Program-made: the position numbers and the translations under genes | Shown: positions 1 to 34,076 of the stretch, piece by piece | Position numbering within the stretch: the first letter of the stretch is position 1 | How the letters are laid out: each line of letters opens with the position of its first letter | Assembly: GCA_029259995.1 (NCBI GenBank) | Contig: JAJDEC010000342.1 | Location: 1-36,276 of the forward strand | Origin: Phycisphaerae bacterium | GTDB lineage: Bacteria; Planctomycetota; Phycisphaerae; UBA1845; UTPLA1 | Reading direction: 5' to 3' | DNA: 36,276 nt | The notes under the pieces: model-generated | Seen by the model: the letters and a program-made list of their open reading frames with translations, nothing else | The model's database searches: none | What the model was told of the DNA's origin: nothing

Positions 1-1
1 T

Positions 2-3767: not shown

Positions 3768-3883
3768 GGGTTGCAGATCTTCGCAGATATCAGGGCCGAG
3801 ATTCTGGAGCGCATGCCGCGGTCAGGAATGAAGCCGAGCCGATCGTGCGCAGTGCGGATTGTGTACGCGAATCGGTTTCGCCG

Positions 3884-4987: not shown

Positions 4988-5021
4988 ACTTCACAATTCA
5001 GCGGCGACTTTCTGCGACGCG

Positions 5022-7159: not shown

Positions 7160-9109
<1,950 letters not shown>

Positions 9110-17777: not shown

Positions 17778-19336
17778 ATCCGGGAGAGAAGCGACTCGCG
17801 ATCATCTTTGGCGCGGCCGTATCGTGCGTCCTGGGATATTACATCGTCACGGGTGTGTTCATCGGTCCGGCGACGAAGGCAAAGGCGGACCTGGAGAACT
17901 GGACGCAGAAGCAAAGTGAATTGGACATGCTGACACGTTCCGAATTGAACTTCGCCGAACGCTGGCAAAAGTACGTCAATCGGACCTTCAGTTTCGATCG
18001 GAATCAGACGTTCGACTGGTTCGGCGAAGCGCTCAAGGAAACGGCCGCCGCCAACGGATTTTCCGCGCCGGATATCAAGAAGAAATCCTCGACGAAGAAG
18101 CTCGGCAGCAAGACGGGCATTGAGGCCATTTCGTATGAAGTGACCGTCAAGGATGAGTATACGAAGGCGATGACTCTGTTACGCGCGATGTACGATTCGG
18201 CGTACATCTCGCGCGTCACGGAGGTTCAGTTGACGCCGGAGCCGAGAGAAGGGCGCAACATCATCAAACTGACATTTGATGTGGCGACGATGATTCTTCC
18301 CGAAGTGCCCAGGAAGGAGTCGGCGATGTTCGCCACGGCGAAGCCGAAGATGCGGGATGCCGACGAGTCGCTCGGCAAGTGGCGCGATGACTTTCCGCCG
18401 GACGAAGCGTTTGCATTGCTCGAAGTGCGGAACATCTTCCGCGAACACATGCCGCCGCCGGCGAATACCGTCCTGATCGACAATCGCGATATCAAGCTCG
18501 TCGGCATCGATGCGGCATTCCTCTGGGAAGGCGAAGTCTCGACGCAGACGCAGTCGGGCGTTGAGCCGGGCAAGCAGAAGCAGATCGTCGGCAAGGGCGA
18601 TGAAGTCGATATTCGCGGCGTCTATGCGGATGGCACGGAGTTCCGTCAGCGTCATGCATTCCAGGACGGCAAGCCGTGGACCTACAAAGTGCCGAGCCAC
18701 ACGCCGCCGCTGCCGCCGAAGACGATCAACCTGGCGATCGACAGTCGCGACAAGGAAGAGGCGCGATTCACGATCACGATCACGGAAGAGGGCGGCAAGC
18801 AGAAGACGTTGCCGCCGATGGTGATTTCGCCGGAAACGAAACTTCCTCTGGGCGATTTTGAAGCCGTTGCCATCGCCGTGTCAGCCGTCTATCCGACAGG
18901 GAAGCTGGTGCGCGAGCAACGATTCACGCCGAGGCCGGGGGAGCAGGTTTACCTGATTCCCGAACAGGCGGTCGCCCCCGTCGAGATTGACGAACCCCCC
19001 GTTGAAGTCGTTGTCGACGATTGTCCGCCGAAGTCGGGATACACGGTATCGGGATTGCTGACTTATCGCGATCCGCAGACGGGCGACGACAAGCAGGAGA
19101 TGATCGTTAACGGACCTGACGGCCGCGAAATCTTCGTGGCGGGGAATACCGCGGATGTGATTGATTGCGGCGTGTTGATCGCCGTGTGCCCGTTGGGCGG
19201 CATCGTGTATATGCAGGAAACCGAGAGTTATTACCTTTATCCTCGCGGTGAGAGTTTCGAAGCGCGTGCGAAGCTGAACGCGGAGCAGCCCGAACAGCTG
19301 GCGATGGCGATTCAGGAATGGTCACAACAGAATTAA
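17774..19336 (+). CDS. PilO/GspM-like bitopic protein with ~350-aa extension ending in a PilP/GspC-HR-like segment
   Basis: The N-terminus is MNPGEKRLAIIFGAAVSCVLGYYIVTGVFIGP (short cytoplasmic part plus TM), then a coiled segment and a PilO-like fold region. The C-terminal segment is YTVSGLLTYRDPQTGDDKQEMIVNGPDGREIFVAGNTADVIDCGVLIAVCPLGGIVYMQE (19040-19230). It has an ATGA overlap with the upstream gene. Confidence 0.6.
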   Translation: MNPGEKRLAIIFGAAVSCVLGYYIVTGVFIGPATKAKADLENWTQKQSELDMLTRSELNFAERWQKYVNRTFSFDRNQTFDWFGEALKETAAANGFSAPDIKKKSSTKKLGSKTGIEAISYEVTVKDEYTKAMTLLRAMYDSAYISRVTEVQLTPEPREGRNIIKLTFDVATMILPEVPRKESAMFATAKPKMRDADESLGKWRDDFPPDEAFALLEVRNIFREHMPPPANTVLIDNRDIKLVGIDAAFLWEGEVSTQTQSGVEPGKQKQIVGKGDEVDIRGVYADGTEFRQRHAFQDGKPWTYKVPSHTPPLPPKTINLAIDSRDKEEARFTITITEEGGKQKTLPPMVISPETKLPLGDFEAVAIAVSAVYPTGKLVREQRFTPRPGEQVYLIPEQAVAPVEIDEPPVEVVVDDCPPKSGYTVSGLLTYRDPQTGDDKQEMIVNGPDGREIFVAGNTADVIDCGVLIAVCPLGGIVYMQETESYYLYPRGESFEARAKLNAEQPEQLAMAIQEWSQQN

Positions 19337-19467
19337 GTGCCGCAATCGTGCGGTGCGAATCTGGTATCAGTTCCCGTCCACTCGGGACGGGATTCAAAAG
19401 CAGCGGGCGACGTCGTCGGGGGCGTACTGGACGAGTCGCACGCGTTTGCGAAAGGACACAACGAATC

Positions 19468-22400
19468 ATGTTGTCCGAAATGATGAACAAACGAGTCTTT
19501 GGCCGAATGGCGAGTCTCGTCATGGTGTTGACACTGTTGTCGCTCGCATTCGGCGCGTCCCGCCTGATCGCCGCGCCCTACGGCGTTCTGGAAGAGCCCA
19601 AGCCGACAGAGTCCAAAGATAAGGACAAAGAAAAGGACGACGCGCCCAAAGACGAGGACGCAGACGAGGACAAGGAATCCTCGGACGACAAGAAGGACGC
19701 GGACTCCAAGGACGATGCGTCGAAGGACGAGAAAAAGGACGAGAAGAAGGAAGATCTGGACAAAGAGCGCGAGCGCGTTGCCGAAGAGAGTGAAGCCGAG
19801 AAGCAGAAGGCGCTCGACAATCTGAGCAAGACGCCCGGTGGCCAGGACATGAGCGCTGCCGAGAAGGCGGAAATGGAAGCCCAGTTGGAGGCACTCAAGC
19901 AGGCGGCGATCAAGTCCGTCGGAAAGACGCCGCCGCCCGCACCGAAGAAGACGACGATCAAGCCGCAGGCAACGAAACCCGCAATCAACATGGATTCGGC
20001 GAAGAAGCCGGGCACGACGTTCGAGGACACCGAGGCGGGCAAGCGGATCCGTCGAAAGATCGGACCCCGAGGCGGCCTGCCGAAAGTGACGGATGCCGCG
20101 GCCAACGACGAAACGCCGGCTTCCAAGAAGAACACGAAGGGCAATCGTCGCAACCTGATCGACACGAGCAAAGAGAATCCGGAAGTGGATCCGAACTCGA
20201 ACGCCGAGGATGTCGGGGAGCCAAAGACAGCGGAGCAGAAGCGGCAGGAAGCGATCGAAAAAGCCCAGCAGCGCGCCAAGGATCGCCGCGCCGATCTCGA
20301 GTCGAAGCGTCGCGACAAGATGAATGCGATCCTGGATCGGGGCAAGAACGATCGCGACGACAAGAAACCGTCGTCGACGAAGCGGCCCCGCGTCGGAAAG
20401 CGAGGCCGGTCAAAGGTTGACGTCGATGTCGAGGATGCCGCCGACGATGATGATTCGTCGGTTCAATCTCCCATCGGAGAGATTCCGGCCGTGTTCATCG
20501 ATATCAAGATGGCGCCCGCCGCGGATCGTGAGTTCAGCATCAATTACGAAGAGACGCCGTGGATGGATGTCGTGGCGGACTTCGCGCGGATGAGCCGGCT
20601 TCCCTTCGTGCGGAATCTCGATGATGAGATTGAGGGCACGCTGACGTACTTCAGTACGGAAAAGTTCAGCTATGACGGGGCGTTTCACAAGCTCAACGAA
20701 TTGTTGTTCGATCGTCCACTGAACAATCTCGTGATCCAGCGGCTCAACGATCGCATCACAGTCGTTCGAATCCCGGACCTGCTCAAGGCGGTTCCGAAGG
20801 ATCGAATCTTCGGTTCGTTCGCGGAATTCAGGGCGGCGAATCTGGATCCGTATGTTGCGTGTCAGACACAGTATGTGCCGCCTGTCGGATTCACGCCGTT
20901 TCAGATCATCGAGCGCTATCGGCCGCTGTTCAGCGACACGTACGGCGTGAAAATCTCTGATCCGGATCGGCTGGAACTGACGGGATTCGCGAAAGAGCAC
21001 ATCTACTTCGACGAGATGGTTCGCCATCTGACGAACATCGAAAATCCGGACGAAATCGACAAGTACGTCACGATTCAGCTCAACTACGCGAAGGCGAATG
21101 ATGTACTGACGATTCTGCGGCAGTTGTATCCCATTCAAGGGGCCGCGGCACCGCCCGCCAAGCGCGGCGGACGACGAGGTCGTCGGCAACCGCAGGCGAA
21201 CGCAATCGCCCCGGATCTCGAAGATGCGGATGCCGTGAATATCATCACGGAAGCGAAAGCGAACATCCTCTACATCAAAGCCCCCGATTACCTCATGAAA
21301 GAACTCCGGAGCCGCATCGCGGAGCTGGATGTACCGACGGAAAGTCGGCCGGAGATGGAACTCGTTGAGCTGACGTACGCCGATGCGTCGACTGTCGTTT
21401 CCCAGGTCCTGCCGATTTTGCAAAGCATCGGTCCCCGAATAACAAAGAGCCCCGACTTCGTGGCGCCCAAGGAGCAGGCCAAATTCGATGTGACGCTCTT
21501 CCCGAGCGCCAACGGCAACGGCATCGTCATCGTGGGCGGCCGGGAAGGTATCGAGTTCGTTCGGCAGCTTGTTTTGAATCAGTTCGACGTACCGCCCGAT
21601 TGGATCACGAAATCGATCGGCCTTCAGCATCGAGACGCTTCTTACATCGTCGAACGATTGAATGAGGCGATGCCATCTTCCGGCGGCGGCCCAACGGCGG
21701 TTCGCCGCGGCAAGAAGGGCGGTCCCGCGATCGTTGCGACAGTGGACCAGCCGCCGAGCATCACGATTGTGTCAAGCCGAAGCCTGTTCGTCAGTGCGTC
21801 GCGATTCGACCTGGCGATGATCGAGGATCTCGTTCAGAAGCTCGATGTCGTCGATCCCGAAGAACCGAGCGAACACTTCGTGTATGTCAGATGCGCGACG
21901 CCGTCGGAAATCGCAGAAACTGTCCAGCAGATCATGGCGGAAGACAGCACGCCGAAAGTCGCTCAGCCGATTGCGGCGAAGAACGCCAAGGCCAGAGCGG
22001 CGGCGCGTCAGAGGGCGGCGCGAGCCAGTCGCGGTCGCAGCGTCCAGAGCGGCGGTGATGGACCAATGATCATTCCGAATGACGCGGATCAGTCGCTGCT
22101 AGTCTATTGCAGCGATCCAGACTGGATTGAAGTGCAGCGGCTGATCGATCGACTGGAGAGCAATGCCTGCGATGTCGAGCCGCAATGGGTTCAGATCAAG
22201 CTTGAACGGGCGGAGCCGACGGATATCGCGACGTACATCAATCAGATGTTTCCCGCGCCGGGCGGAAGCGCCCAGTCCGTCACAGCGGATTCCTTTAACA
22301 AGACAATCAACATTTACGCGACGCCGATGTTCATCGAAAAGGTTCGGCCGCTCATTGAGAAGATCGACTATACGTCCACTGGCGAACTGACAATCATCAA

Positions 22401-25400
22401 GCTGATGTGGGCGAAGGCCGAGATCATCGCGCCGATCATTCAGCAGGCCGTTCCCGAATCGCAATACGTGTCGCCGACAGCCCGGATCAATGCCGCTACG
22501 GCGAAAACGCGTCGCGGCAAGACGCCGCCCAAGGCGGCCCAGAACCGCGTCGTGCAGTCGGCGGGCGATACGAAGGTTCGCATCGTTGCCGAGCCCGTGA
22601 CGAACTCACTGCTCGTGACGGCGCCGCCGGAGAAGCTGCGCACGATTGAGAATCTCGTCAGCCAGATGGAGGCCGTCGCCGAGAGTCAGCGGCCGGAGAA
22701 GGTCATCGTCAACGTCATCAATCGCAAGGCCGACGAGATCGCGGGCGTGCTTTCCAGCATATTGAACGCGACGCAGGGCGCGGGCGGTAAGGAAGGCGCG
22801 GCGGGCGGTTCCGTGAATCCGACGGATGTCGAGCTCTCGATCACGGCGATCGGCGATCAGCTCATCCTGTTCGGGCCGCAGAATGAAGTCGCCGAAGCGA
22901 TTCAGCTTGTCACGCAGATCGACACGCTGGATGCGATGCCGATCACGCGAAAGGTTCGCGTTTATGACGCGGAAGAGGATGAGAAAAAACTCCGTTCGAT
23001 GCTGGCGCTGAAGGCCGACACAGCAATTTCCGTCAACCAGGCTCCGCAAAAAGGCGGACGTCGCGCTCCGAATCGACGCGCGCCGACAAAGCCGACGGCG
23101 AAGCTGACGGACACGGGCGCGACAGTGTCTGATGTGCAGATCTACGCAAATCCGTACGAGAACACGCTGCTGATCCGCGCGATGCCGAAGGATTGGAAGC
23201 TGATCGAAGAGATTCTGGATGTGATTCGGGATGACGCACCGCCCATTCCCGGCAGCGAAGACTACGAGTCGATGTTCATCGTCAACCTGAAGCACAAGTC
23301 GGCGTGGGATATTTCATACGACCTGGAAGATGTCATCAACATCGAAGGTCGGCGACCGGTTACGTTCAAGGAAGGACCTCGCGACAAGGATCTGATCGTG
23401 ATGAACTTCCGCCCGAGTCAGCGGCCGGAGATCGAGAAGTGGATCGAGATTTATGACGTGCCGAAGGATGGCGGCAAATACGGTTCGGGATATGTCTCGA
23501 TCGACGTCAAGGGCGGTATGTCGGCGCTGGACGCGGCGAGGTTGTTGAAGGCGCGGGCAGGTTCTGAGTTTCCGATCGAGATTGCGGAAATCGGCAGCGG
23601 GAGTGCCGTTCAGACGATTGACATTCACGCTGGCGAAGAGGAAGAGGAGGCAGCGAGTACGGAAGGCAAGCGAACGGATCGTGGCGCGGACGGGCGGCCG
23701 ATCTCGGCGCTGCCGTCGCATATGCTGCCGCTCTGGTTGCGCGACGTCGTGTGTGCCGCAGCGATCGGTCAATCGGAATCGGAAACCGAAAAGGACGACG
23801 GCGCACCGCTCGGCGGGCATCTGGAATCCATCCTGAATCCGCCGACGGATCGCGTGCAGATTTTGACGGATCCGGATACGGGAAAGCTGATCCTGCTCGG
23901 GCCTGAGGAAGAAGTGCAGCGTCTGCGGGACATTCTCGAAGAACTGATGGGCGACGAAAAGACGGAACCCGTCATGCGGATCTTCCCACTGAAGTACGCG
24001 CCTGTATCAGAAGTCGCCGCCAAGCTGAATGAGATCTTCAATAGCCCGGCGCAGCGCACGGTGAATCGTGGCAGAGGAAATCGGGCGCAGCCCCAGCTGC
24101 CCGGTCAGCCAACACAAGCCGGCAAAGGCGACGACAAGAACGCCAAGGGCAAGCAACCGGTTCAGCAGCAGGCTCCGGCGACGCCGGCGCGAATCAAAGT
24201 GATTCCGAACGAGCGAACGAGTTCAGTTGTCGTCGTCGCGCCGCCCAAGGAAATTCCGCTGATCGTCGAAGTGCTTCGCCATCTGGACAGCAAGCGGATT
24301 CTCGACGTCAACATGCGGATGTTCGAGATGAAGAATCTCGACGCTTCGCAAGTCGTTGAGAACCTGAAGGAAGTGCTCGGCATTGAGGATCGTGCCTTGA
24401 CCCGCGCTCCGCAGCGCGGACGCGGCGCCGCCAATCAGCGGGCCCAGCAGCAAGTGCAGATCCAGGGCGACGACGGCGACACGCTTGTCAGCGCTGACAA
24501 AGTCAAGCTGACGGCCGAATCGCAGACGAATACGATCATTGCGCAGGGGCCGCCGGATACGCTCGACTTGATCGAGGGCATCATCAAGGACCTCGAGGAC
24601 AAGACGATCAAGTCGGATGTCGAGATGATGCGGATCGTTCTGCGGAAGGCCCGCGCGAGCGAGATTGCGGACATCGTCCAGAGCCTGATCGACGAGACGA
24701 TCAATAATCAGAATGCGACGCCTGCCGCAGCGCCGCAGCGCGGTCGCGGTCGAGGCCGCACGCCGGCAGCGGCATCCCGTCGCAATGAAAACGTGTCGGT
24801 CCATGCGGATCCGCGGACGAACAGCGTGATCCTGGCGGGACCGGGCGATCAGCTGGAGAAGGCGAAGGCGATTGTTGAGGAACTGGACAACACGGAAGTG
24901 GGTCTCGTGATTCGACAGATTCCCGTCAAGGGCGAGGCGACGGAGATCGCGAATACGCTTCGAACGCTGTATAACGTGGGCGGCCGGCCCGGAGCTTCGC
25001 CGGATGTCATCATCACACCGCTGGATGCGACGCACACGATCCTGATCAAGGCCCCTGAGCCTTTGATGGTTGACATCGAAGAGCAGCTCGCCCTGATCGA
25101 CGCCAAATTTGAATCCAGTGACAAGCTGCGCAAGATTGAGATGAAGTTTGCGAATGCGGAGACAGTCGCAACGCAGCTGTCAGAATTATTCGGTACGGGC
25201 CGAACTTCGCGAGGTTCAACGAATCGTTCCGCCCAGATCTCCATTCGCGGCTACAAGAGCAGCGGCATCATCTACGTGCAGGCGCCCGATGAGGAATTCG
25301 AACGCATCAAGGCGACGGCCGAGGATCTCGACAAGGTCGACACGTCCGTCCAGGTGCATCGCCTCCAGCTCAATCACGCGCCGGCACAGCAGGTCCTGAC

Positions 25401-28400
25401 GAAAATCCAGGCGATGATGGGCGAAGCGATTCGCTCGGGGGCGATGGGGAATACGAATCTCGATTACGTCAGCATGCAGGCCGATCCGCGAACGAATTCG
25501 CTGATCCTTGTCGGCGGACCGACGTCGGCGCTGTTGCTCGGCCAGATGCTGGCGACGATCGACGTTCCCCAGGAAGGGAAGAACGAGCAGGAAACCAAGG
25601 TCTACACACTGCCGCCGACGATCAACGTGGCGGACATCGTTCGCAACATCAACGAGCTGTTTCGGGGCATCAGCCTCACGACGCACGGCGTCGAGCCGCC
25701 CGTTGTGACGCCCAACCAGGGATCGAACCTGATCATCGTTCGCGCCAACGGCAAGCAGCACGAGCAGATCGAGCGCGACGTCGTGAATCCCGTGAAGGCC
25801 GAGGGCGACAAGGGCGTTCGCAAGGACAACATCTATGTCGTCAACAATGCGAAGGCCGTTGATCTGGCCAACGTGCTGACGCGCCACGTTCGCGAGACGA
25901 TGCAGCAGGTGAATCGGCAGTATCCCGTCAATATCGTTGCCGACGAGGGAACAAACCAGCTGATCGTCAACGCGACGGACGAGGACTTCAACAAGATCAG
26001 GCCGATGATCGAGGCGCTCGACCAGGAATCCGGCGAGCGCAGGACGGAAGTCTTCAAGGTTCAGTACGTTTCGCCGTGGAGCATGGCGACGATTATTACG
26101 CAGCAGTTCCGCGGATCGTCGCGAAATCCGAACGATCAGGTCAACGCAAGTTTCGAGGACGGTACGTACAGCATTATTGTCACAGCCAACGATGAAAACA
26201 TGGCGAAGGTGCGCGATCTGATTCTCAAGGCCGATGTGCCGTCGAAGGAGACGATCACTGAATACGTGCAACTCAAGCACGGCCAATCCGACGAAATGCG
26301 CACGTCGATCGACGCGGCCCTGCGTGGTCGCTATCCGTCGGATCGACGGGGGCAGATGCCGTTTAACGTCACGTCTCAGAACCTGTCGAATACGTTGATC
26401 GTCAGCGCCCGCGAAGACATCATGCCGGAGATCCTGGACATGATTTCCAGGCTGGACATCCCCGGCGGCGGCGAGCACATTCGCCGCGTCTTCAAGCTGA
26501 CATTCTCCGAACCGGGATCGGTCTCGCGGATGATTCAGAACCTGTTCCGGCCGACGAGTGGTCGCCCGTCACCGAGAGAACAAGTCAAGAGCTCCGACGA
26601 CTGGGCGACGAACAGCGTCATCGTGTCGGCTGTCGAGTCGAAGATGCTGGAAGTGGAACAGCTGATCAATGAAATGGACCAGCCGGGCGACAGCGTGCGC
26701 ACGGAGCGCGTCATCAATATCGAGAACGCGGATCCGAACGACGTCGCATCGAGCATACAGCAGATTCTACAACAGGCGACGTCAGGTCAGCGCGGTCGGC
26801 AGGCGGCCGTCGTTCGCGCCGTGCGGGGCACGACGAAAATCGTCGCCTATGCCAACGAGAAGGAATACGAGTCGATCAAGTCGCTCGTGGAGCAGATCGA
26901 CATCGAGGGCGGCCGAATCATTCACGCCGTCGTCATTCCCGATCAGGTGCCGGCGCGAACGATCGCGGACAACATCAACAACCTCTTCGGTCGCGGCCGC
27001 CAGGGTGGCGATGCACCGCATGCGGAGTCGCACGAGCCGACGAATACGGTTCTCGTCAGCGCGACGGACGCCGAATTCGAACGCATTCAGGCGCAGTTGA
27101 TCACACCGCTGAGCGATTCGAAGGCGTCGGGGATCTTCAGTATTCACTACATCCCCGTGAAGAATGCGATTGCCGATGAAGTCGCACAGACGATGCAGGC
27201 GTTCTTCGACAAGAAGGCGGGCATCAGCAGCAATCGCGGATTCGGTCGCGGCGGCCGGGGCGGGGGCCAATCCGCCGAGGATCGCGACAATCAGGTCACG
27301 ATCACAGCCGAACCGAACAGCAACACGCTGATCGTCTATTGCACGGAAAAGACCAAGAAGGAAATCGATGATCTGCTCGCCGTGATCGACAGCGCCGATA
27401 CGACGGAAAAACGCGTCGAAATGGTGGCGCTGCAATACGTCGATGCAACGACGATGATTGAGATCCTGACGGAAGTGCTGCGTGTCAGCCGGACCAGTGC
27501 GAAAGAACCGGACGATCGCCCCTGGTGGGCGCGCGACAACGATCGCGACGACGACAAGGATGTCGTGCTGGCGGGCGACACGCGTTTGAAGGCGATCACG
27601 GAAACGAACTCCGTCATCGTTGCCGGAAAATCCGAAGCCGTCGAAGACGCCCTGGCAAAGATCGCGGAGCTGGACAAGCCGGGCGATACCGGCGACACGC
27701 CGGTTCCCATCCGGCTCGTCAACACGAATGCCTCGACGCTCGCCGAGACGCTGAAGCAGGTGTTTGTCGAGAACAACCGCAGTGGTTCGGGCGGCCGGAA
27801 CGGCAAGTCGTCGGGGCCCGAATTGACGATCGTTCCCGATCAGTCGTCGAACACGATCTATGTTCGAGGAAAGTTGTCGGATGTGAACAAGGTCGTCGAG
27901 CAGGCGAGGCAGATGGACTCGGAAGCGAGCGGCGGAGAATCCGGCATCGTGGTCATTCCGATTCCGTTCGGTCACGACGTGACGGACCTGGCCAACATGA
28001 TTGAATCCCAGATCAACGAAAACGAGCAGAATGAGAAGCAGAAGAATCGGAACTACACGCCGGACCTCGTCAAGATCACGCCCAACGCGCGGACGAACGT
28101 GCTGCTCGTGAATGCATCAAAATCGAAGCTGGAGGACGTGAAGCGCGTGATTGAAGATATGCAACAGCAAATGCAGTTCAGGGGCGGCCCCACGCGACGC
28201 GTGCTCAAGATTGAGAACATGACGCCGGAGCAGGCGAAGGAACTGATCGAGAAAGTCAAAGAAGGGCAGCAAAGCAGCGGCTCGAGTGGAAACACGCGGC
28301 GCAGCAATCGCGGCGGTCGTCGCGGCGACGCCAACTGGACGCACAACCGACGATTCGACGATGCGAAGCACAGCGCATCGCCGCGCCGAACCAAGCGCGC

Positions 28401-31400
28401 CGGCACGATGGTTGCCGCATCGATGCCTGTCTTCCTGATGAACGTCGCAATCTCGACCGGCTTTGCACAGTCGGATGCACCGAAGAAGGATGATCGTGAG
28501 CCGCCGCGTTCGATGCGGATTCGACCCCAGCAGCGCGACGACAAGAAGTCGGATACGAACAATGAACCACGGGCGCGAAAGACGGTTGCGTCGGGCCAGC
28601 CTGCGGCGCGAGGGACTCAGCCGCAGCCCGCGGGGAGGGATCCGCGAGATCCGAACGCGGCGACGTCCAATGCGGAGCGACTGATTCGTGAACGCGCCGC
28701 AGCTTCCAGCGGACCGCGGATGTCGGACGAAGTGCTGGAGCAGTTGAGCCGGCGACTGTCAGGCACGGATATCAACGTGATCGAAGCGCCGGACGGCAGC
28801 CTGATTCTGGAAGGCCTGGAGCAGGACGTCGATATCGTCGCCGGCATCATCGAGATGGTCGACCAGCAGACGCCGCTCAAGCAGATTGAGATCGTCATGC
28901 TCAAGAACCAGTTGGCCGAGCCGCTGGCGCAGAAGCTGACAACGGTCTTCAAGACGTTGGAGCCGCCGAATCCGCGACCGATCGACAAGGTGGATTTTCT
29001 GGCGGACCAGCGGACGAACAGCATCTTCATCGCGGCCGCACCTTCGAACATGCAGCGAGCCATCGATCTGGCGCGCATGGCGGACCAACCCTCGAATATA
29101 TCGCGACAGACGAAGTCCTTCGTCTTTCAGAATCGTCGCGTGATGGAAGTCGGTGAGACGATCAAGAAGATTGCGGCGAACTATCTGCGACAGTTGCAGT
29201 TGCCGACGGATCAGATTCAGATCGAGATCGACTCGTTCACGAACCAAGTGATTGTTTCCGCGGGCGAGCAGGACCTGGAATTTGTCGAGACGATCGTCAA
29301 GACGCTCGACATGAGCATCGACGATGCGGAAGCCGCGGATAAGATGAGCGAGATTGGCAAGGCCGACGTCATGGTCGTCCCGCTCCGCATTTCGCAGGCC
29401 CCCACGCTCGCCATCCTGATCAACGAGTTGCTGACGAAGGCCGCGACGGGCGACACGCCGTTGAAGGATTTCATCCGGCGCTTTCGCCTGCTCGACGAGA
29501 ATGGTAATCCCATCGCCGACGTGAATCTGGATCGACCCATCGCCGTGTTCGGCGAGCCGGAGTCGAATTCGCTGATCATTGCGAGCACCAAGGAGAATTG
29601 TCTCGTCGTGAAGCAGATTGCGATGGCTTTCGACAAGGAACCCAGCAAGGCGGCGGTCACGTCACGCGTCTTCACGCTGGCGTATGCGGATGCGACGGAA
29701 GTCGCGACGCAGCTCGATGCACTGCTGACGTCAACGGAGCAGATTACATCGAAGGCCAGCGGCGGCGGCGGTGCGGCCGGCGTGCCCGATGGACCGATCG
29801 GCGCGTTGGTCTACAAGGCCGTTGTGTCGGCGGACGCGCGAACAAACCAGGTCGTCGTCATCGGCCGACCGGAGGCCGTCGAAGCGATGGCGGGGCTCGT
29901 CGAAAAGCTCGACGTCAAGGGTCAGGGCGTGATGCCGTTTGAGATCGTGAAGCTGAATCACGCGAACGCGTCGGGCCTCGCAACGGCGCTGACGGACCTG
30001 ATGGACAAGCGCAAGTTAGCGATGCCGGCGGGCGGCGAGAATTCCGTGAAGAGTGAGACAGTCGTCATCGTGCCCGACGAGCGTTCCGTATCGCTGATCA
30101 TCGCGGCGAAGCGCGAGCGGATCGAGGAGTTGAAGGGCCTGATCGCGAAGCTGGACATACCGGCGACGGCGCTGATCGACAACATCCGCACGCTGACGCT
30201 CAAGAACAGCACGGCGACGGACCTGGCGGCCAAGCTCCAGGATCTGTGGTCGCAGAGCGAGGCGAATCGCGATTCCGCGCAGGGCGGTCTGACGTTCGAG
30301 ACGCCGGCAATCGTTGCCGATGAGCGCAGCAATTCGCTGATCATCGCGGCGAGCGAGAGCGACTTTGATGCGATCAAGTCTGTCGTCGAAAAGATCGAGA
30401 ATCTCGAACTGAACCCGATGTCGGATATTTACATCGTTCGGCTCAAGCACAATTCGGCGGCCGAACTGAAGGGACCGCTGCAGACAATGTTCGACAAGCG
30501 GGCCGAAATGCGATCGCTCCAGGAGCCGCGGCCGGAGGACAAAGTGTCCATCGAGTCGGATCCCGTGAACAACGCGCTGATTTTCGTGGCGTCGCGCGAG
30601 AATCACGAGTTGTTGATGCAGAAGATTGCGGATCTGGATCAGCCGATCGGTGCGATTCCCGTTGTCGAATTCTTCAAATGCGAGAATGTGTACGCAGATA
30701 CGGTCAAGGAAGCGATCGAGAATTTCGTCGAGAATGCTTTCCGCCCCGGTACCGGTGGCGACAGCAGCGTTCTGACGGAGCGGAACAAAGTTGCCGTTGT
30801 AGTCGACAGCCGGGCCAACATGCTGATCGTCTCGGCGAGCCCGGAGAACATGGAAGTCATCCGTCGAATCTACAGCGAGATGAACGACATCCGAAGTCCT
30901 TGGACGCCTGTCCACATTCAGATTGTCGAGTTGAAGAACACGGAAGCGAGTCAGCTTGCATCGAAAGTCGAGACGTGGCTTGAGCAGTTGAACACGGACG
31001 TGCAGTCGGGAACGAGCGGTGGTGGCGGTTCGCAGAACCAGTTCGCCGTGCGCGTCATTGCCGACACGGTTCGCAACTGGCTCTTCGTCGGCGGCACGCG
31101 CGACGGCGTTCGCCAGGCGATGGACTTCATCGCCAAGTACGATCAACCGATCGATCCGAACGTGGGGCCGTTTGTCAGCGCCGAGGTATATCCGCTCAAC
31201 CAGGCGAAGGCGAGCCAGGTCGGCGAGATGCTTCGCAACATCTTCGACGCACGAAATAATCAGTCAGGGACGGGCGATGCGGCGATGCAGCCGATTCCCG
31301 TGACTGTCGAAATCAACGAGCCCGGGAATTCGCTGTTGATTAATGCGTCGCGGCAGGATCATCTCATGGTCACGGGATTGCTGGCCCGGCTTGATGTGCC

Positions 31401-33954
31401 ATCCGAGATCCCGCGGATGTTCAAGGTTTATCCGCTCTCCAAGGCGTCGGCGACTGTCGTCAAGGAGACGCTGGATCAGATTTACCAGTCGAGCAGCACA
31501 CAGGGCGGCGGCGCTCAGGGCATCGTGACGGTTGCGGAAGAGCGGACCAATTCCGTCGTCGTGGCCGTGCCTCCGGGCGAACTTGCCAATGTTCAAAAGC
31601 TGATTACGCAGCTCGACCAGATCGAGATCACGGAGATTGCCGAAGTCGAAGTCATCCAGTGTGAGAACGAAGACGCCAACAAGATGGCGGAGCTCCTCAC
31701 GGAGATCATGACCGGCCAGTCGGCACAGGGCGGCGCCGGCAGCGCGGCCGATGCGGAATCCGCGCGGCAGCTCAGCTCACTGCTGGTCCAGTTCGAGGCC
31801 AAGGACCAATACGGCCAGCGCGACATTCTCCAGACGGTTCGCGAGAACGTGCAGATCAGCTACAACGAACGCTCGAACAGTGTCATCGTCGTCGCGCCGC
31901 CGTCGTCGATGCGATTGATCAAGAAGCTGGTGCAGAAGCTGGATGGCATTCAGAAGCGCGAAGTTCGCGTGAAAGTGTTCCCGCTCGTCAACTCCGACGC
32001 CGCGATCATGGTCGAGAAGCTCGAATCCATGTTCGCCCAGGACGACAGCGCGTCCGATCAGGAAGCCTTCCAGCAAGGTCGTGAAATCACAGTCGAAGGC
32101 GGCGCCAGCGACGTCGCTTCGGGGCCGGAATTCGCAGGGGCGGCCAATTCGCGGAAGGGCACGTTCGGCCGACCGCGAACGACATTCGTCGCTGATGAGC
32201 GAACCAACTCCATCATCGTTGCCGGCTGGCCGGAAGACATCGACGTCGCCGCCGACATTATCGATGCGTTGGACTCGCGTGACATTCAGGAACGCATCAC
32301 GACGGTCTATCCGCTCGTCAACATGAAGGCCGACGAAGTGCAGGGATCGCTCGATTCGTATTTCCAGGCCCAGCGAGACGCACAGAGCTCCGTCGAAGGT
32401 CAGGCCCAGGCGAGATTGCTCGAGAAAGACGTGACAGTCGTGTCTCACGAGGAGTCGAATCAACTCATCGTTTCTTCCAGCCCGCGCTATCAATCGGAAG
32501 TGTTACGGATCATTCAGCAGCTCGACGCACCGCCGCCGCAGGTCATGATCGAAGTCATGATCGCGGAAGTCACGCTCGACGACAGTTTCGAAATGGGCAT
32601 GGAGTTCGCGTTGCAGCAGCTCAAATTCAGCGAGACGGCCGTCGCCGGCGGCAACGGCATTCTTCAGAGCAACTCGTTCGACTTTGTCGGAGGTACGGAC
32701 CTCGGCGCTGCGGGTGCGGGATTGGGCGGCTTCAGCTTCACGATCACGGGCGAGGATTTCAACTTCCTTGTGCGGGCGCTTCAGTCCGACAGCCGACTGG
32801 ATGTGATTCAGCGGCCGATGATCATGTGCCAGAACAATCAAACCGCCTCGATCAACATCGGTCAGCAAGTGCCCTTCGTTCGGGGCACGACTGTGTCGGA
32901 CAACGGCCAGACGACGGCCAACATCGAATATGAACCGGTCGGCGTCATCCTGAACGTCGAACCGATTATTAATCCGGATGGCTTCGTCTACATGCTGATC
33001 GAACCGGAAGTCTCGTCGATCACGGATTCCAGCATTCCGCTGGGTAACGGCATTTTCGCTCCGATCATTTCAGAGCAGAAGGCCAGCACGACGGTCGCCG
33101 TCAAGGATGGCGAGACAGTCGTCATCGGCGGATTGATCACGACGCGGGAAACGGAATCGGAGAGCAAAGTGCCCGTACTCGGCGACATGCCGGGGATCGG
33201 CAATCTCTTCCGCACGACGTCGCGCCGCAACACGCGTTCAGAACTGCTCATTGCGATGACGCCGACGATTATCCGATCCGTCGAAGATGCACGGCGCACG
33301 AGCGAATTTCAGCGTGATCTCGGCGGATATCTGACGCCGGAAGTCAAGGGCAGCCCGCTGATGCGGAATCTGCAGGTTGAACCGGAGTCGTATAGCGAGA
33401 TCGATTCGATCGAAAGCGATCCGGGAACGATGCAGCCGCGCGTGTTGCCGAGCGGCAAGCCGCAGATCATCCCGACGCAGCCGCAGCGCGGGCCGAGCTA
33501 TGTCCCCGCGGCGCCGCGATACGGTCCTGTCGTCCCGCAATCGACGTCGGGAACGGCGAATGTGATGGTGCGGAACGGCGCGGCAGTGTCGCCAGGCGCC
33601 TCGCAGGCGTCCTATCAGCGGCCCGTCTCATCGCAACGCATCGGTACGATGCAGCCGGCGCTACCGACAGTTGACCAGGTGCGCAGCGGCGCGGCGCCGC
33701 TGGGACGTCCGAATCAGGATTTGCGTCCCGGGATGCCGCAGGGTAATCCGCAGACCTATGCCAATCGACCTGCCGTTGCTTCGTCGCCGGTTCGAACGTA
33801 CATGCGATTGCCGGAATTCTCGGCGGACGAGGAAGCCGCACGGCCGATCGTGAAGATCAGCACGCATCCGTCGAAGCGAAGTACGTCGGAAAAGGAAGCG
33901 CTGCGCCGTCAGGCTGCCGTGAAGAAATCGAACCGGAGCGACACGCATCGATGA
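19468..33954 (+). CDS. gspD: Giant secretin (GspD/PilQ family), ~4,828 aa, with ~40 N-domain repeats and one C-terminal secretin beta-barrel domain
   Basis: The frame is uninterrupted to TGA at 33952-33954. ATG 19468 gives a Sec-type signal peptide, MLSEMMNKRVFGRMASLVMVLTLLSLAFGASRLIAAP. The track start at 19318 adds 50 Arg-rich residues and overlaps the upstream gene. The C-terminal region carries secretin hallmarks (see domain features). Confidence 0.9.
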   Translation: MLSEMMNKRVFGRMASLVMVLTLLSLAFGASRLIAAPYGVLEEPKPTESKDKDKEKDDAPKDEDADEDKESSDDKKDADSKDDASKDEKKDEKKEDLDKERERVAEESEAEKQKALDNLSKTPGGQDMSAAEKAEMEAQLEALKQAAIKSVGKTPPPAPKKTTIKPQATKPAINMDSAKKPGTTFEDTEAGKRIRRKIGPRGGLPKVTDAAANDETPASKKNTKGNRRNLIDTSKENPEVDPNSNAEDVGEPKTAEQKRQEAIEKAQQRAKDRRADLESKRRDKMNAILDRGKNDRDDKKPSSTKRPRVGKRGRSKVDVDVEDAADDDDSSVQSPIGEIPAVFIDIKMAPAADREFSINYEETPWMDVVADFARMSRLPFVRNLDDEIEGTLTYFSTEKFSYDGAFHKLNELLFDRPLNNLVIQRLNDRITVVRIPDLLKAVPKDRIFGSFAEFRAANLDPYVACQTQYVPPVGFTPFQIIERYRPLFSDTYGVKISDPDRLELTGFAKEHIYFDEMVRHLTNIENPDEIDKYVTIQLNYAKANDVLTILRQLYPIQGAAAPPAKRGGRRGRRQPQANAIAPDLEDADAVNIITEAKANILYIKAPDYLMKELRSRIAELDVPTESRPEMELVELTYADASTVVSQVLPILQSIGPRITKSPDFVAPKEQAKFDVTLFPSANGNGIVIVGGREGIEFVRQLVLNQFDVPPDWITKSIGLQHRDASYIVERLNEAMPSSGGGPTAVRRGKKGGPAIVATVDQPPSITIVSSRSLFVSASRFDLAMIEDLVQKLDVVDPEEPSEHFVYVRCATPSEIAETVQQIMAEDSTPKVAQPIAAKNAKARAAARQRAARASRGRSVQSGGDGPMIIPNDADQSLLVYCSDPDWIEVQRLIDRLESNACDVEPQWVQIKLERAEPTDIATYINQMFPAPGGSAQSVTADSFNKTINIYATPMFIEKVRPLIEKIDYTSTGELTIIKLMWAKAEIIAPIIQQAVPESQYVSPTARINAATAKTRRGKTPPKAAQNRVVQSAGDTKVRIVAEPVTNSLLVTAPPEKLRTIENLVSQMEAVAESQRPEKVIVNVINRKADEIAGVLSSILNATQGAGGKEGAAGGSVNPTDVELSITAIGDQLILFGPQNEVAEAIQLVTQIDTLDAMPITRKVRVYDAEEDEKKLRSMLALKADTAISVNQAPQKGGRRAPNRRAPTKPTAKLTDTGATVSDVQIYANPYENTLLIRAMPKDWKLIEEILDVIRDDAPPIPGSEDYESMFIVNLKHKSAWDISYDLEDVINIEGRRPVTFKEGPRDKDLIVMNFRPSQRPEIEKWIEIYDVPKDGGKYGSGYVSIDVKGGMSALDAARLLKARAGSEFPIEIAEIGSGSAVQTIDIHAGEEEEEAASTEGKRTDRGADGRPISALPSHMLPLWLRDVVCAAAIGQSESETEKDDGAPLGGHLESILNPPTDRVQILTDPDTGKLILLGPEEEVQRLRDILEELMGDEKTEPVMRIFPLKYAPVSEVAAKLNEIFNSPAQRTVNRGRGNRAQPQLPGQPTQAGKGDDKNAKGKQPVQQQAPATPARIKVIPNERTSSVVVVAPPKEIPLIVEVLRHLDSKRILDVNMRMFEMKNLDASQVVENLKEVLGIEDRALTRAPQRGRGAANQRAQQQVQIQGDDGDTLVSADKVKLTAESQTNTIIAQGPPDTLDLIEGIIKDLEDKTIKSDVEMMRIVLRKARASEIADIVQSLIDETINNQNATPAAAPQRGRGRGRTPAAASRRNENVSVHADPRTNSVILAGPGDQLEKAKAIVEELDNTEVGLVIRQIPVKGEATEIANTLRTLYNVGGRPGASPDVIITPLDATHTILIKAPEPLMVDIEEQLALIDAKFESSDKLRKIEMKFANAETVATQLSELFGTGRTSRGSTNRSAQISIRGYKSSGIIYVQAPDEEFERIKATAEDLDKVDTSVQVHRLQLNHAPAQQVLTKIQAMMGEAIRSGAMGNTNLDYVSMQADPRTNSLILVGGPTSALLLGQMLATIDVPQEGKNEQETKVYTLPPTINVADIVRNINELFRGISLTTHGVEPPVVTPNQGSNLIIVRANGKQHEQIERDVVNPVKAEGDKGVRKDNIYVVNNAKAVDLANVLTRHVRETMQQVNRQYPVNIVADEGTNQLIVNATDEDFNKIRPMIEALDQESGERRTEVFKVQYVSPWSMATIITQQFRGSSRNPNDQVNASFEDGTYSIIVTANDENMAKVRDLILKADVPSKETITEYVQLKHGQSDEMRTSIDAALRGRYPSDRRGQMPFNVTSQNLSNTLIVSAREDIMPEILDMISRLDIPGGGEHIRRVFKLTFSEPGSVSRMIQNLFRPTSGRPSPREQVKSSDDWATNSVIVSAVESKMLEVEQLINEMDQPGDSVRTERVINIENADPNDVASSIQQILQQATSGQRGRQAAVVRAVRGTTKIVAYANEKEYESIKSLVEQIDIEGGRIIHAVVIPDQVPARTIADNINNLFGRGRQGGDAPHAESHEPTNTVLVSATDAEFERIQAQLITPLSDSKASGIFSIHYIPVKNAIADEVAQTMQAFFDKKAGISSNRGFGRGGRGGGQSAEDRDNQVTITAEPNSNTLIVYCTEKTKKEIDDLLAVIDSADTTEKRVEMVALQYVDATTMIEILTEVLRVSRTSAKEPDDRPWWARDNDRDDDKDVVLAGDTRLKAITETNSVIVAGKSEAVEDALAKIAELDKPGDTGDTPVPIRLVNTNASTLAETLKQVFVENNRSGSGGRNGKSSGPELTIVPDQSSNTIYVRGKLSDVNKVVEQARQMDSEASGGESGIVVIPIPFGHDVTDLANMIESQINENEQNEKQKNRNYTPDLVKITPNARTNVLLVNASKSKLEDVKRVIEDMQQQMQFRGGPTRRVLKIENMTPEQAKELIEKVKEGQQSSGSSGNTRRSNRGGRRGDANWTHNRRFDDAKHSASPRRTKRAGTMVAASMPVFLMNVAISTGFAQSDAPKKDDREPPRSMRIRPQQRDDKKSDTNNEPRARKTVASGQPAARGTQPQPAGRDPRDPNAATSNAERLIRERAAASSGPRMSDEVLEQLSRRLSGTDINVIEAPDGSLILEGLEQDVDIVAGIIEMVDQQTPLKQIEIVMLKNQLAEPLAQKLTTVFKTLEPPNPRPIDKVDFLADQRTNSIFIAAAPSNMQRAIDLARMADQPSNISRQTKSFVFQNRRVMEVGETIKKIAANYLRQLQLPTDQIQIEIDSFTNQVIVSAGEQDLEFVETIVKTLDMSIDDAEAADKMSEIGKADVMVVPLRISQAPTLAILINELLTKAATGDTPLKDFIRRFRLLDENGNPIADVNLDRPIAVFGEPESNSLIIASTKENCLVVKQIAMAFDKEPSKAAVTSRVFTLAYADATEVATQLDALLTSTEQITSKASGGGGAAGVPDGPIGALVYKAVVSADARTNQVVVIGRPEAVEAMAGLVEKLDVKGQGVMPFEIVKLNHANASGLATALTDLMDKRKLAMPAGGENSVKSETVVIVPDERSVSLIIAAKRERIEELKGLIAKLDIPATALIDNIRTLTLKNSTATDLAAKLQDLWSQSEANRDSAQGGLTFETPAIVADERSNSLIIAASESDFDAIKSVVEKIENLELNPMSDIYIVRLKHNSAAELKGPLQTMFDKRAEMRSLQEPRPEDKVSIESDPVNNALIFVASRENHELLMQKIADLDQPIGAIPVVEFFKCENVYADTVKEAIENFVENAFRPGTGGDSSVLTERNKVAVVVDSRANMLIVSASPENMEVIRRIYSEMNDIRSPWTPVHIQIVELKNTEASQLASKVETWLEQLNTDVQSGTSGGGGSQNQFAVRVIADTVRNWLFVGGTRDGVRQAMDFIAKYDQPIDPNVGPFVSAEVYPLNQAKASQVGEMLRNIFDARNNQSGTGDAAMQPIPVTVEINEPGNSLLINASRQDHLMVTGLLARLDVPSEIPRMFKVYPLSKASATVVKETLDQIYQSSSTQGGGAQGIVTVAEERTNSVVVAVPPGELANVQKLITQLDQIEITEIAEVEVIQCENEDANKMAELLTEIMTGQSAQGGAGSAADAESARQLSSLLVQFEAKDQYGQRDILQTVRENVQISYNERSNSVIVVAPPSSMRLIKKLVQKLDGIQKREVRVKVFPLVNSDAAIMVEKLESMFAQDDSASDQEAFQQGREITVEGGASDVASGPEFAGAANSRKGTFGRPRTTFVADERTNSIIVAGWPEDIDVAADIIDALDSRDIQERITTVYPLVNMKADEVQGSLDSYFQAQRDAQSSVEGQAQARLLEKDVTVVSHEESNQLIVSSSPRYQSEVLRIIQQLDAPPPQVMIEVMIAEVTLDDSFEMGMEFALQQLKFSETAVAGGNGILQSNSFDFVGGTDLGAAGAGLGGFSFTITGEDFNFLVRALQSDSRLDVIQRPMIMCQNNQTASINIGQQVPFVRGTTVSDNGQTTANIEYEPVGVILNVEPIINPDGFVYMLIEPEVSSITDSSIPLGNGIFAPIISEQKASTTVAVKDGETVVIGGLITTRETESESKVPVLGDMPGIGNLFRTTSRRNTRSELLIAMTPTIIRSVEDARRTSEFQRDLGGYLTPEVKGSPLMRNLQVEPESYSEIDSIESDPGTMQPRVLPSGKPQIIPTQPQRGPSYVPAAPRYGPVVPQSTSGTANVMVRNGAAVSPGASQASYQRPVSSQRIGTMQPALPTVDQVRSGAAPLGRPNQDLRPGMPQGNPQTYANRPAVASSPVRTYMRLPEFSADEEAARPIVKISTHPSKRSTSEKEALRRQAAVKKSNRSDTHR
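19591..20460 (+). other. K/D/E-rich low-complexity region at the mature N-terminus of the secretin
   Basis: About 290 aa such as EEPKPTESKDKDKEKDDAPKDEDADEDKESSDDKKDADSKDD...KRRDKMNAILDRGKNDRDDKKPSS...DVEDAADDDDSS. The region has no hydrophobic core pattern. Confidence 0.8.
20533..20778 (+). other. N0-like (STN/TonB-plug-like) domain of the secretin
   Basis: FSINYEETPWMDVVADFARMSRLPFVRNLDDEIEGTLTYFSTEKFSYDGAFHKLNELLFDRPLNNLVIQRLNDRITVVRIPD matches the N0 pattern. That pattern is: first strand, helix with target-specific residues, G.vT.., a second helix, then a hairpin. Confidence 0.6.
21064..32526 (+). repeat. Array of ~40 protein-level tandem secretin-N (N1/N2/N3-type) domains, divergent at the DNA level
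   Basis: The unit recurs as: strand with (Y/F)xxA, a helix, a strand carrying [DE]x[RS][TS]N[STQ][LV][IL][IV]xA, a helix, then [LI][IV]xx[LI]D. Examples are ADPRTNSVILAGP (~24805), ADPRTNSLILVGG (~25482), ADERSNSLIIAAS (~30313), EERTNSVVVAVP (~31537) and ADERTNSIIVAGW (~32191). My manual count is 38-42. Linkers interrupt the array at ~23600-23830 and ~28250-28760. Confidence 0.8.
32527..33279 (+). other. Secretin C-terminal beta-barrel domain (PF00263-type)
   Basis: The domain runs PPPQVMIEVMIAEVTLDDSFEMGMEF...FNFLVRALQSDSRLDVIQRPMIMCQNNQTASINIGQQVPF...EYEPVGVILNVEPIINPDGFVYMLIEPEVSS...STTVAVKDGETVVIGGLI...SKVPVLGDMPGIGNLFRTTS...ELLIAMTPTIIRS. Confidence 0.92.
33280..33951 (+). other. P/Q/G-rich low-complexity C-terminal tail of the secretin (S-domain position)
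   Basis: About 224 aa follow the barrel, for example ...PQIIPTQPQRGPSYVPAAPRYGPVVPQS...RPGMPQGNPQTYANRPAVASSP.... The tail ends in the basic stretch KRSTSEKEALRRQAAVKKSNRSDTHR. Confidence 0.75.
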
Positions 33955-34007: not shown

Positions 34008-34076
34008 ATGCGTGGGGCATCGGCAAGGCGTCGATGCCGCACGTGTTTATGGAAAAGGCAATGGCGAACTGAATGA
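34008..34076 (+). CDS. Candidate 22-codon upstream ORF / leader peptide coupled to the lipoprotein gene
   Basis: AAGGAG (33998-34003) lies 4 nt upstream of ATG 34008. The product is MRGASARRRCRTCLWKRQWRTE. Its TGA (34074-34076) overlaps ATG 34073 of the next gene (ATGA). It is below the ORF-track length cutoff and could be chance. Confidence 0.25.
   Translation: MRGASARRRCRTCLWKRQWRTE
34016..34038 (+). terminator. Hairpin downstream of the secretin gene (possible terminator or attenuator)
   Basis: GGCATCG-GCAAGGCGT-CGATGCC forms a 7-bp stem with a 9-nt loop, followed by GCACGTGTTTAT (only a weak T-run). It lies inside the candidate uORF. Confidence 0.25.

Follow-up and report, generated by a model that had tools for sequence, protein, structure and literature searches.

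Secretins are the outer-membrane gates of type II and type III secretion, type IV pili and filamentous phage, and are normally encoded by single genes of 500-800 residues. Classical GspD carries the domains N0-N3 in about 650 aa. The extra rings of PilQ suit a wider periplasm. PilQ of Thermus thermophilus is a secretin with such extra stacked periplasmic rings, encoded by a single 757-residue gene (PMC5745081), and in the Tad pilus a separate barrel-less periplasmic ring protein, RcpC, extends the channel below the secretin (PMC12307814). Here we analyse a 36,276-nucleotide stretch of DNA from a Phycisphaerae bacterium (hereafter the window), in which an open reading frame (ORF) at 19318..33954 on the + strand encodes a secretin of 4,878 aa, and in particular a segment at residues 3022-3051 of that protein, named H3, which resembles a signal peptide. 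Comparison with related loci makes it almost certain in our view that H3 is by ancestry a genuine Sec-type signal peptide, orthologous to the N-terminal signals of stand-alone secretins, and that it marks a gene breakpoint.

The window protein shares with GspD, PulD and XcpQ (PDB 3EZJ, 5WQ8, 6HCG) a C-terminal barrel, the ring-building, KH-like Secretin_N domains and a setting in a type II secretion system (T2SS) operon. It differs from classical GspD in having ~39 N-domains in three blocks with signal-peptide-like linkers, and its relatives share the array over two genes. As in PilQ the extra N-type domains lengthen the conduit, whereas PilQ has neither an internal signal peptide nor a barrel-less partner. 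Pfam assigned 31 stretches to Secretin_N (E = 7e-287) and residues 4487-4653 to a single Secretin barrel, and a hidden Markov model (HMM) of the repeat, built from the protein itself, gave 39 N-domain hits in three blocks (residues 599-1303, about 1510-2949 and about 3160-4403), set apart by long low-complexity gaps. With a C-terminal PF00263 barrel and PF03958 N-domains alongside T2SS genes, the protein is by its sequence a T2SS-type secretin of the GspD family, and hence by family membership an outer-membrane channel; the same membership would predict a 12-15-mer. The locus belongs to a large family of secretins of 3,000-5,500 residues, with up to 57 stacked periplasmic domains. In the literature searched we found neither giant planctomycetal secretins nor barrel-less partners made of Secretin_N arrays described, and no secretin with an internal signal peptide.

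The internal element H3

A preliminary description of this DNA had pointed to a Sec-like signal peptide deep inside the secretin ORF, and re-translation confirms that the segment is real. Positions 28381-28473 read PRRTKRAGT-MVAASMPVFLMNVAISTGFA-QS in the frame of the ORF, residues 3022-3051 covering the n-region through the Q. The n-region PRRTKRAGT (28381-28407) holds four R/K and no acidic residue, and it ends a basic linker with 12 R/K in 42 aa (28282..28407, + strand); its basic character is found in all relatives with a continuous ("fused") gene, though the sequence varies. The h- and c-region, MVAASMPVFLMNVAISTGFA, lie at 28408..28467 (+ strand, residues 3031-3050) and consist of 19 uncharged residues followed by G-F-A, after which comes Q. 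Small residues thus occupy -3 and -1 (G3048-F-A3050 before Q3051), all members of the fused clade have [GA]-x-A before Q, and a site for type I signal peptidase is predicted between A3050 (28465-28467) and Q3051 (28468-28470). An in-frame ATG at 28408 is residue 3031, and the distance from this methionine to the end of the protein was recomputed as 1,848 aa, the secretin length given earlier. Behind H3 lies a K/D/P/Q/R-rich low-complexity linker (28468..28773, + strand, residues 3051-3152) with a predicted local distance difference test score (pLDDT) below 50 in the AlphaFold2 model. The likeness to the true N-terminal signal MMNKRVFGRMASLVMVLTLLSLAFGASRLIAA (19480..19575, + strand, residues 55-86), which is also followed by K/D-rich low complexity, had been noted before and is present in the sequence.

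A simple n-h-c rule, asking for a net basic 10-mer, an uncharged hydrophobic 12-20-mer and small residues at -3/-1, selects two sites in the 4,878 residues, namely the N-terminal signal and H3. The most hydrophobic window of the protein (residues 64-86) falls within the N-terminal signal, where the best 12-mer sums to -2.3 kcal/mol on the Hessa scale; the corresponding sum in H3 is +1.75 kcal/mol. It should be noted that these energies are plain unweighted sums, an approximation without position weighting. Apart from starting at residue 3022 of a continuous ORF rather than at an N-terminus, H3 has, as read from its residues, the features of a Sec signal peptide for signal peptidase I.

Being the longest charge-free run in the protein (25 aa) and its second most hydrophobic 15- or 19-residue window, behind the N-terminal signal, H3 might instead be a stop-transfer transmembrane helix or a hairpin by which the protein is anchored midway in the inner membrane. 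We find this hardly credible. The best 19-mer sums to +4.5 kcal/mol (+3.7 to +7.1 in relatives), P, N, S, T and G occur within the segment, its basic residues would end up on the periplasmic side, contrary to the positive-inside rule, and with a single span the half of the protein that bears the barrel would stay in the cytoplasm. The membrane-inserted hairpin named as an option in the preliminary description is disfavoured by the same 19-mer sum and by the lack of any second hydrophobic segment in the sequence that could serve as its partner.

Three further classes were tried for H3 and rejected. A lipoprotein signal for signal peptidase II is out, as residues 3031-3060 contain no Cys and so no lipobox. 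A twin-arginine (Tat) signal is out as well: the window reads P-R-R-T-K-R, but relatives have GKKRAGT, GKSRMRT or KAKVGGT. An in-plane amphipathic helix is rejected on a hydrophobic moment of 0.02-0.13, which is under that of shuffles.

One gene or two genes in related loci

Scanning one genome per species with a barrel-proximal query gave 18 loci from Planctomycetota/Phycisphaerae. All relatives used here are metagenome-derived predictions, with fragments among them (L003, P0005, P0009, P0020). In the closer relatives (L001, L002, L005, L006 and L007, 56-88% identity) the ORF runs thousands of residues upstream of the barrel, and L003 (66% identity) is of the same fused type with its 5' end missing at a contig end. 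At ~40% identity (L008-L016 and L018) the secretin ORF is just 1,435-1,754 aa long and begins with a signal peptide, for example MIASWLLVAAAVLGQATQP; stand-alone secretins in related Planctomycetota measure about 1,450-1,970 aa. The upstream neighbour in seven of eight such split loci is a long barrel-less ORF that gives 6-31 Secretin_N hits. Homologues of this barrel-less gene have an N-terminal signal peptide of their own and a basic C-terminus (…GGGRYR or …VRGRRR before the stop). The junction in split loci runs from this basic tail over the stop codon and a ~50-350-nt spacer to a GGAG-type Shine-Dalgarno (SD) sequence and the secretin ATG.

An alignment of seven fused and eight split loci superposes H3 on the N-terminal signal peptides of the stand-alone secretins. 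After either of them both kinds of gene continue with a P/T/Q-rich linker and then LSGxP[IV]x[IV]…DGxLIL.G.E.D, and residues 3051-3152 of the window align as the counterpart of the N-terminal linker of mature stand-alone secretins. The signals of the latter (L022, L008-L018, P0056, P0076, P0089, P0116 and P0118) resemble H3 in position, in an LP... start, in ending with A-x-A or L-G before Q and in the linker and half-domain that follow. Unlike them, H3 of the window is internal, 3,030 residues into the protein, has no SD, is less hydrophobic and carries a central N/Q/H. In split relatives the place of the basic linker at 28282-28407 is taken by the basic C-terminal tail of the first gene, its stop codon and the spacer. 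The linker contains, ~17 residues ahead of H3, the motif R-G-D-A-N-W-T-H-N-R-R-F-D (28321-28359, residues 3002-3014), which is found in all fused relatives and is absent as coding sequence in the split ones; G3000, R3002 and D3004 are invariant in this region. The comparison of orthologous loci, suggested earlier as a check, was thus carried out, and a stop and a start do separate two genes at the position of H3 in split relatives.

As placed by these alignments, the breakpoint divides a unit A from a unit B. Unit A comprises the N-terminal region and ~26 Secretin_N repeats, is barrel-less and exported, and ends with β1-α1 and a basic tail; unit B comprises the signal peptide, linker, β2-β3-α2, ~13 repeats and the secretin barrel. 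The two are joined in frame in the window, while in some family members part of the stack belongs to a separate protein without a barrel and the rest to the secretin, and H3 marks the exact point of division. RcpC is analogous to unit A of the split relatives, but is not built of Secretin_N repeats. We know of no fusion of RcpC to its secretin via a signal peptide.

An exhaustive homology search over 1.84 billion representatives returned 2,566 hits, and the best 150 of these were classified. Of these 150, 114 bear a barrel and are at least 3,000 aa long, reaching 5,532 aa and as many as 57 N-domain hits. Another 11 with a barrel are shorter than 2,000 aa, the complete ones starting with an N-terminal signal. 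Several lack a barrel; these arrays reach 5,437 aa, carry signal peptides of their own and end in basic C-termini. In a word-indexed database a 322-aa query spanning the junction had no match at E <= 1e-5. Continuous giant secretins without an internal hydrophobic linker (3,000-5,500 aa, up to 57 N-domain hits) were also seen among P0010-P0051, P0059 and P0025.

The breakpoint falls inside a domain. An AlphaFold2 model of residues 2885-3270, made from an 8-sequence alignment (mean pLDDT 61), gives the order β1-α1, ~165 disordered residues, β2-β3-α2, with complete N-domains on both sides, and its folded parts match N-domains of GspD, XcpQ and PulD in the PDB. A lone helix is placed in the linker at residues 3036-3049, with pLDDT < 50. 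The first half of the bisected domain, RRVLKIENMTPEQAKELIEKVKEG (28192..28281, + strand, residues 2959-2988), has its strand at residues 2959-2964 and its helix at 2970-2988 (E75-80 and H86-104 of the model); its homologue in split relatives forms the C-terminus of the barrel-less gene product. The second half (28774..28869, + strand, residues 3153-3184) covers Pfam Secretin_N profile positions 34-66, with the model elements E269-272, E277-282 and H284-300. This β2-β3-α2 unit, INVIEAPDGSLILEGLEQDVDIVAGIIEMVD, is the first folded element past the linker and also the first folded element of stand-alone secretins. The preliminary description had seen a fresh module start in LSGTDINVIEAPDGSLILEGLEQDVDIVAGIIEMVD; it does align with the first folded element of stand-alone secretins, but what begins there is half a Secretin_N domain and not a complete new one.

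We further removed the linker in silico and scanned the spliced sequences with Pfam Secretin_N, which has a gathering cut-off of 28.2 bits. All four constructs align to most or all of the profile (positions 2-66/67, and 10-63 for H2, a second element described below). The end of gene A spliced to the start of gene B of L009 (30.8 bits) and the spliced H2 junction of the window (30.1 bits) score above the cut-off; the H3 junction of the window (19.4 bits, against 15.0 bits for its second half by itself) and the L022 pair (15.7 bits) score below it. From model and alignments together the breakpoint is placed in the α1-β2 loop of a single Secretin_N domain. We infer that the two half-domains pair with each other. 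If they do, split relatives must complete the domain in trans, and the completed domain would naturally clasp the secretin to the barrel-less stack; the split N-domain offers a directly testable docking mechanism between two proteins.

The most informative split locus is L022. It shares with L023 and L024 a 2,593-aa barrel-less protein, P0135, the C-terminus of which matches the window to about residue 3003, and the junction DNA is identical in these three independent assemblies, which argues against the split loci being assembly frameshifts. The L022 operon and the window agree in gene order, and the agreement extends to the 520-aa gene upstream (37% identity) and to the lipoprotein downstream (38%). 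At the junction the P0135 stop is followed by a 66-nt in-frame spacer carrying GGAAGGAAGAAAGGAAGGA and then by a 1,718-aa secretin, which starts MFQQTKIAASLPILIIYMALGTAVAQT and has the signal peptide MFQQTKIAASLPILIIYMALGTAVA before QT. Residues 5-1704 of this secretin align to window residues 3030-4742 with 53.5% identity, and its identity to the fused proteins is 49-63%. A distance tree with 200 bootstraps (all trees here are distance-based) places it inside the fused-gene clade with 100% bootstrap, together with L003, P0004 and the window's subgroup (90%). The spacer encodes, in a frame differing from that of both genes, DVGWTHDGR, a remnant of the fused-linker motif R-[GS]-D-A-x-W-T-x-x-R-R-[YF]-[DE] (window residues 3002-3014).

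Nested position and frame-shifted remnant together indicate a secondary fission, so the split state of L022 arose from a fused ancestor, and this is the sole transition that can be polarised. A broader, unbootstrapped tree has continuous giants deepest and the main split clade derived, with fused members nested within the latter; continuous giant secretins are the commoner state, the earliest-branching lineages included. By these trees the gene boundary has been crossed more than once and fusion is just half of a two-way traffic. The earlier proposal that the ORF is a fusion of formerly separate genes therefore stands in part: elsewhere there are indeed two genes, a barrel-less repeat protein and a secretin of ~1,450-1,970 aa starting at H3, but a polarity as fusion is not established. 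The n-h-c architecture of H3 nevertheless implies that it was an N-terminal signal at some stage of the window's ancestry.

Constraint on H3 and its possible function

The window, L001 and L002 share all 13 residues of VAASMPVFLMNVA, and at least 8 of the codons differ synonymously. For these three sequences, all of them fused, Nei-Gojobori-type counts gave a ratio of nonsynonymous to synonymous differences per site (pN/pS) of 0.17-0.28 for the h- and c-region of H3 (23 codons), 0.18-0.61 for the flanking folded domains, 0.27-0.65 for linkers (0.27-0.48, with many indels, for the linker downstream of H3) and 0.7-1.35 for the n-region of H3, pS being about 0.55-0.65 throughout. Throughout the fused clade the motif [ST]-[LMI]-P-x-x-x-x-[NQH]-…-[GA]-x-A-Q persists next to a linker that is barely alignable, and it is retained in fused proteins that are just 49-58% identical to the L022 secretin over the third block of N-domains. 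A3050 and Q3051, the predicted -1 and +1 residues, are the only invariant columns in ~140 linker residues of the 8-sequence alignment; a pair of small residue and Gln also ends the true signal peptides of split relatives and H2. On these patterns it is very probable that H3 is still under purifying selection in fused genes.

The near-neutral n-region would also suit a functionless relic of a two-gene past that decays slowly and neutrally. H2 does show such decay, with R and D in its h-region and a Hessa-scale 12-mer sum of +4.25, and lineages may toggle between the split and the fused state, so that selection could act in split phases alone. Yet the pN/pS of the h- and c-region is as low as that of folded domains in three genes that are all fused, with synonymous sites near saturation, and the motif is conserved over the whole fused clade next to a linker that can hardly be aligned. 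We regard a relic as quite improbable.

Among the functional alternatives named in the preliminary description, the signal-peptidase site is the one best supported by the conservation pattern. Processing would explain why the n-region stays basic, why the h-region is free of charge and why A and Q do not vary. The overall account that we favour, as somewhat probable, is a breakpoint of shared ancestry with a retained internal signal-peptidase site; that H3 still works as a site of signal peptidase I processing in the fused protein is something we infer with a little less than even confidence. Sec export of the giant precursor would then be accompanied or followed by a cut between A3050 and Q3051 that yields the same two mature proteins as are made by split-gene relatives, and these would re-join via their shared half-domains into a long periplasmic conduit beneath the outer-membrane pore. 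H3 would either engage the translocon as a loop before the very basic linker crosses, or be cut from the periplasmic side. More tentatively still, giant planctomycetal secretins in general might be Sec-exported polyproteins, in which internal signals in ring-domain loops restart translocation and are cut by signal peptidase I, and in which two (or three) ring proteins clasp each other by a split Secretin_N domain in trans; as the mature parts would be the same from either arrangement, lineages could then switch freely between one gene and two genes.

If H3 is still cleaved, signal peptidase would here mature a polyprotein, which is rare in bacteria, and act on a substrate of unconventional topology. 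Such cleavage would also alter which subunits the machine is predicted to contain, and the locus would offer a defined system for very-long-chain export and for conduits that span an enlarged periplasm. The cytochrome b/c1 precursor FbcH of Bradyrhizobium reportedly has an internal signal peptide that exports the downstream part and is cleaved, so that one gene gives two proteins. That signal follows a cytoplasm-facing end of a membrane protein, a conventional topology, whereas in the window the upstream part is itself exported.

Several points weigh against cleavage, topology first among them. Signal peptidase I normally acts on an h-region inserted N-in/C-out. Both flanks of H3 are expected to be periplasmic, since the homologues of unit A have signal peptides of their own, and the giant secretin sequence contains no second hydrophobic segment that could restore the N-in/C-out topology. 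H3 is also less hydrophobic than real signals, with a best 12-mer sum of +1.2 to +2.6 kcal/mol in the closer fused relatives and +0.6 in P0008 versus -0.25 to -2.3, and fused H3 has a conserved mid-helix N/Q/H where the truly N-terminal form of L022 has Y. This weaker hydrophobicity suggests a compromise between recognition and the avoidance of translocation arrest. Distant giant secretins keep a hydrophobic linker segment, often with the A-x-A-type end gone, a pattern that hints at a role for hydrophobicity as such. The hydrophobic peak of H3 (1.93) is within chance, as 97.6% of composition-preserving shuffles reached at least this value (shuffle maximum 2.36 +/- 0.27); as shuffles match its hydrophobicity, the significance of H3 comes from homology and conservation. 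The pN/pS sample, 23 codons in three sequences, is small. A precedent is found in pestivirus Erns/E1, where signal peptidase cuts after a trans-side membrane-associated helix between two luminal domains (PMC8310223). As in H3, a hydrophobic helix there lies between two trans-side domains with no classical N-in/C-out signal; unlike H3, the enzyme is that of the endoplasmic reticulum, the substrate is a viral polyprotein and the helix is long and amphipathic, H3 being short and non-amphipathic.

H3 might also be an uncleaved functional element of the full-length protein, which passes through SecYEG into the periplasm; 12-15 copies round the conduit would there touch the cell wall, a leaflet of a membrane or some partner protein, or else aid translocation of the long chain. 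A hydrophobic linker with an early proline persists in deep-branching giants that lack a clear A-x-A end, the central N/Q/H weakens the fused h-region as expected if arrest in the translocon must be avoided, and the sequence-specific conservation is above that usual for signal peptides. On the other hand, split relatives, including one within the fused clade, make H3 a removable N-terminal signal; since L022 turns H3 into such a signal with the operon intact, H3 is unlikely to be needed in the mature protein. Nor is H3 amphipathic, its hydrophobic moment being under that of shuffles, and conservation is highest at the predicted scissile pair A-Q and not in the hydrophobic core. Hence an uncleaved element appears rather unlikely to us.

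The in-frame ATG had earlier led to the proposal of an internal translation start. In-frame isoforms from internal starts are known for SctQ and IF2. Here, ATG 28408 would give a 1,848-aa secretin precursor beside the full-length product or replacing it, which would explain the conservation of all three signal-peptide regions. An ATG is found in the n-region in five of seven fused loci with DNA, and in about five of ten lineages when protein-only ones are included, where about two of ten are expected by chance. L003, which may be an exception, has an SD-like AGGGAAGGA ahead of the ATG and weakly structured mRNA (-12.4 kcal/mol). In the window, however, no SD-like motif lies within 30 nt upstream of 28408, while every split relative has GGAG or AGGAG at 5-10 nt. 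The mRNA at 28408 folds with -19.9 kcal/mol and ranks 88th of 109 in-frame ATGs in openness, against -8 to -17.6 for the true starts of split genes, and L005 and L006 lack ATG, GTG or TTG in the n-region although the element is conserved. A conserved start combined with a ribosome-binding signal or open mRNA, by which internal-start isoforms are recognised, was thus not found, the SD being confined to L003. We consider the internal start improbable, and in the window it is disfavoured. Promoter-like sites and terminators were looked for at the H3 junction and not found.

H2 and other features of the locus

A second and more degenerate signal-like element, H2, had gone unmentioned in the preliminary description. 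It reads MLPLWLRDVVCAAAIG before Q (23722..23772, + strand, residues 1469-1485), is the fourth-ranked hydrophobic window of the protein and lies in the long low-complexity linker that separates the first two N-domain blocks, within the α1-β2 loop of a further N-domain, the flanks of which gave the 30.1 bits above. It is kept in L001, L002, L005, P0001, P0003 and P0008 and within the barrel-less P0135, with an [LI]-G-Q-[ST] end. The h-region in the window is interrupted by R-D, and with its high 12-mer sum H2 is not signal-competent there. No gene boundary was seen at H2 in any relative. H2 may represent a site of the H3 kind that is older or in decay. A recent duplication of the second into the third block as cause of the likeness between H2 and H3 was rejected, as the blocks share ~21% identity in several registers.

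On the repeat HMM map the first Secretin_N block (residues 599-1303), with a K/D/E-rich region ahead of it, lies at 21112..23226, the second, with ~18 repeats (residues ~1510-2949), at 23845..28164 and the third, with ~13 repeats (residues ~3189-4403), at 28882..32526, all on the + strand. The Secretin β-barrel/gate domain PF00263 (residues 4487-4653) follows at 32776..33276 (+ strand, E = 4.9e-50). At the other end of the gene, the listed start ATG 19318 runs into the upstream ORF 17774-19336 and adds ~54 residues ahead of the signal peptide. The real start is probably ATG 19480 or 19483 (MMNKRVFGR…), which is more plausible because the local mRNA is open (-9.1 kcal/mol at 19480).

From the barrel to the stop codon extends a P/Q/S/A-rich low-complexity tail of ~225 residues (4654-4878, 33277-33951). 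Classical secretins have a short pilotin-binding S-domain at this position. Directly 3' of the secretin, a 224-aa ORF (34073-34747, + strand) with a lipoprotein signal (…LMAAFMGG-C) has no Pfam match, and the lipoprotein at the same position in L022 is 38% identical to it (E = 5e-39); its product is a candidate for the pilotin of the giant secretin or for a lipoprotein that assists its assembly. The next ORF (34811-35356, + strand, 181 aa), which has several hydrophobic stretches and no Pfam match, is a probable multi-span membrane protein, and L022 has a 192-aa ORF at the equivalent place.

In two split loci G+C-rich hairpins stand right after the barrel-less stop, in L012 at about 6843-6880 (with a T-run) and in L013 at about 8182-8225. 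These suggest a partial termination of transcription between the genes and hence an unequal dosage, which would be impossible for a fused gene. L012 further has an in-frame TAG (1429-1434) in the middle of a Secretin_N domain of its barrel-less gene, which may be a sequencing error, a pseudogene mutation or a read-through codon. A reading of L012 as three genes matching the three modules was dropped, since this first boundary is a lone TAG with neither spacer nor signal; the locus is two genes plus a stop or sequencing error.

The giant secretin is the final large gene of a T2SS-like operon, which holds gspF, gspG, three genes for N-methyl (minor) pseudopilins, gspK, a PilM/GspL-like gene, the gene for a 520-aa membrane protein and the secretin. 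No GspE-type ATPase was found among the 17 window ORFs scanned. The G+C content is 59%. The region 5' of the T2SS genes (1-9109) carries lptF/lptG-like permease genes (3884-6671, minus strand), an RNA methyltransferase gene and two genes for pyridoxal phosphate (PLP)-dependent decarboxylases (2487-3767 and 7160-9109).

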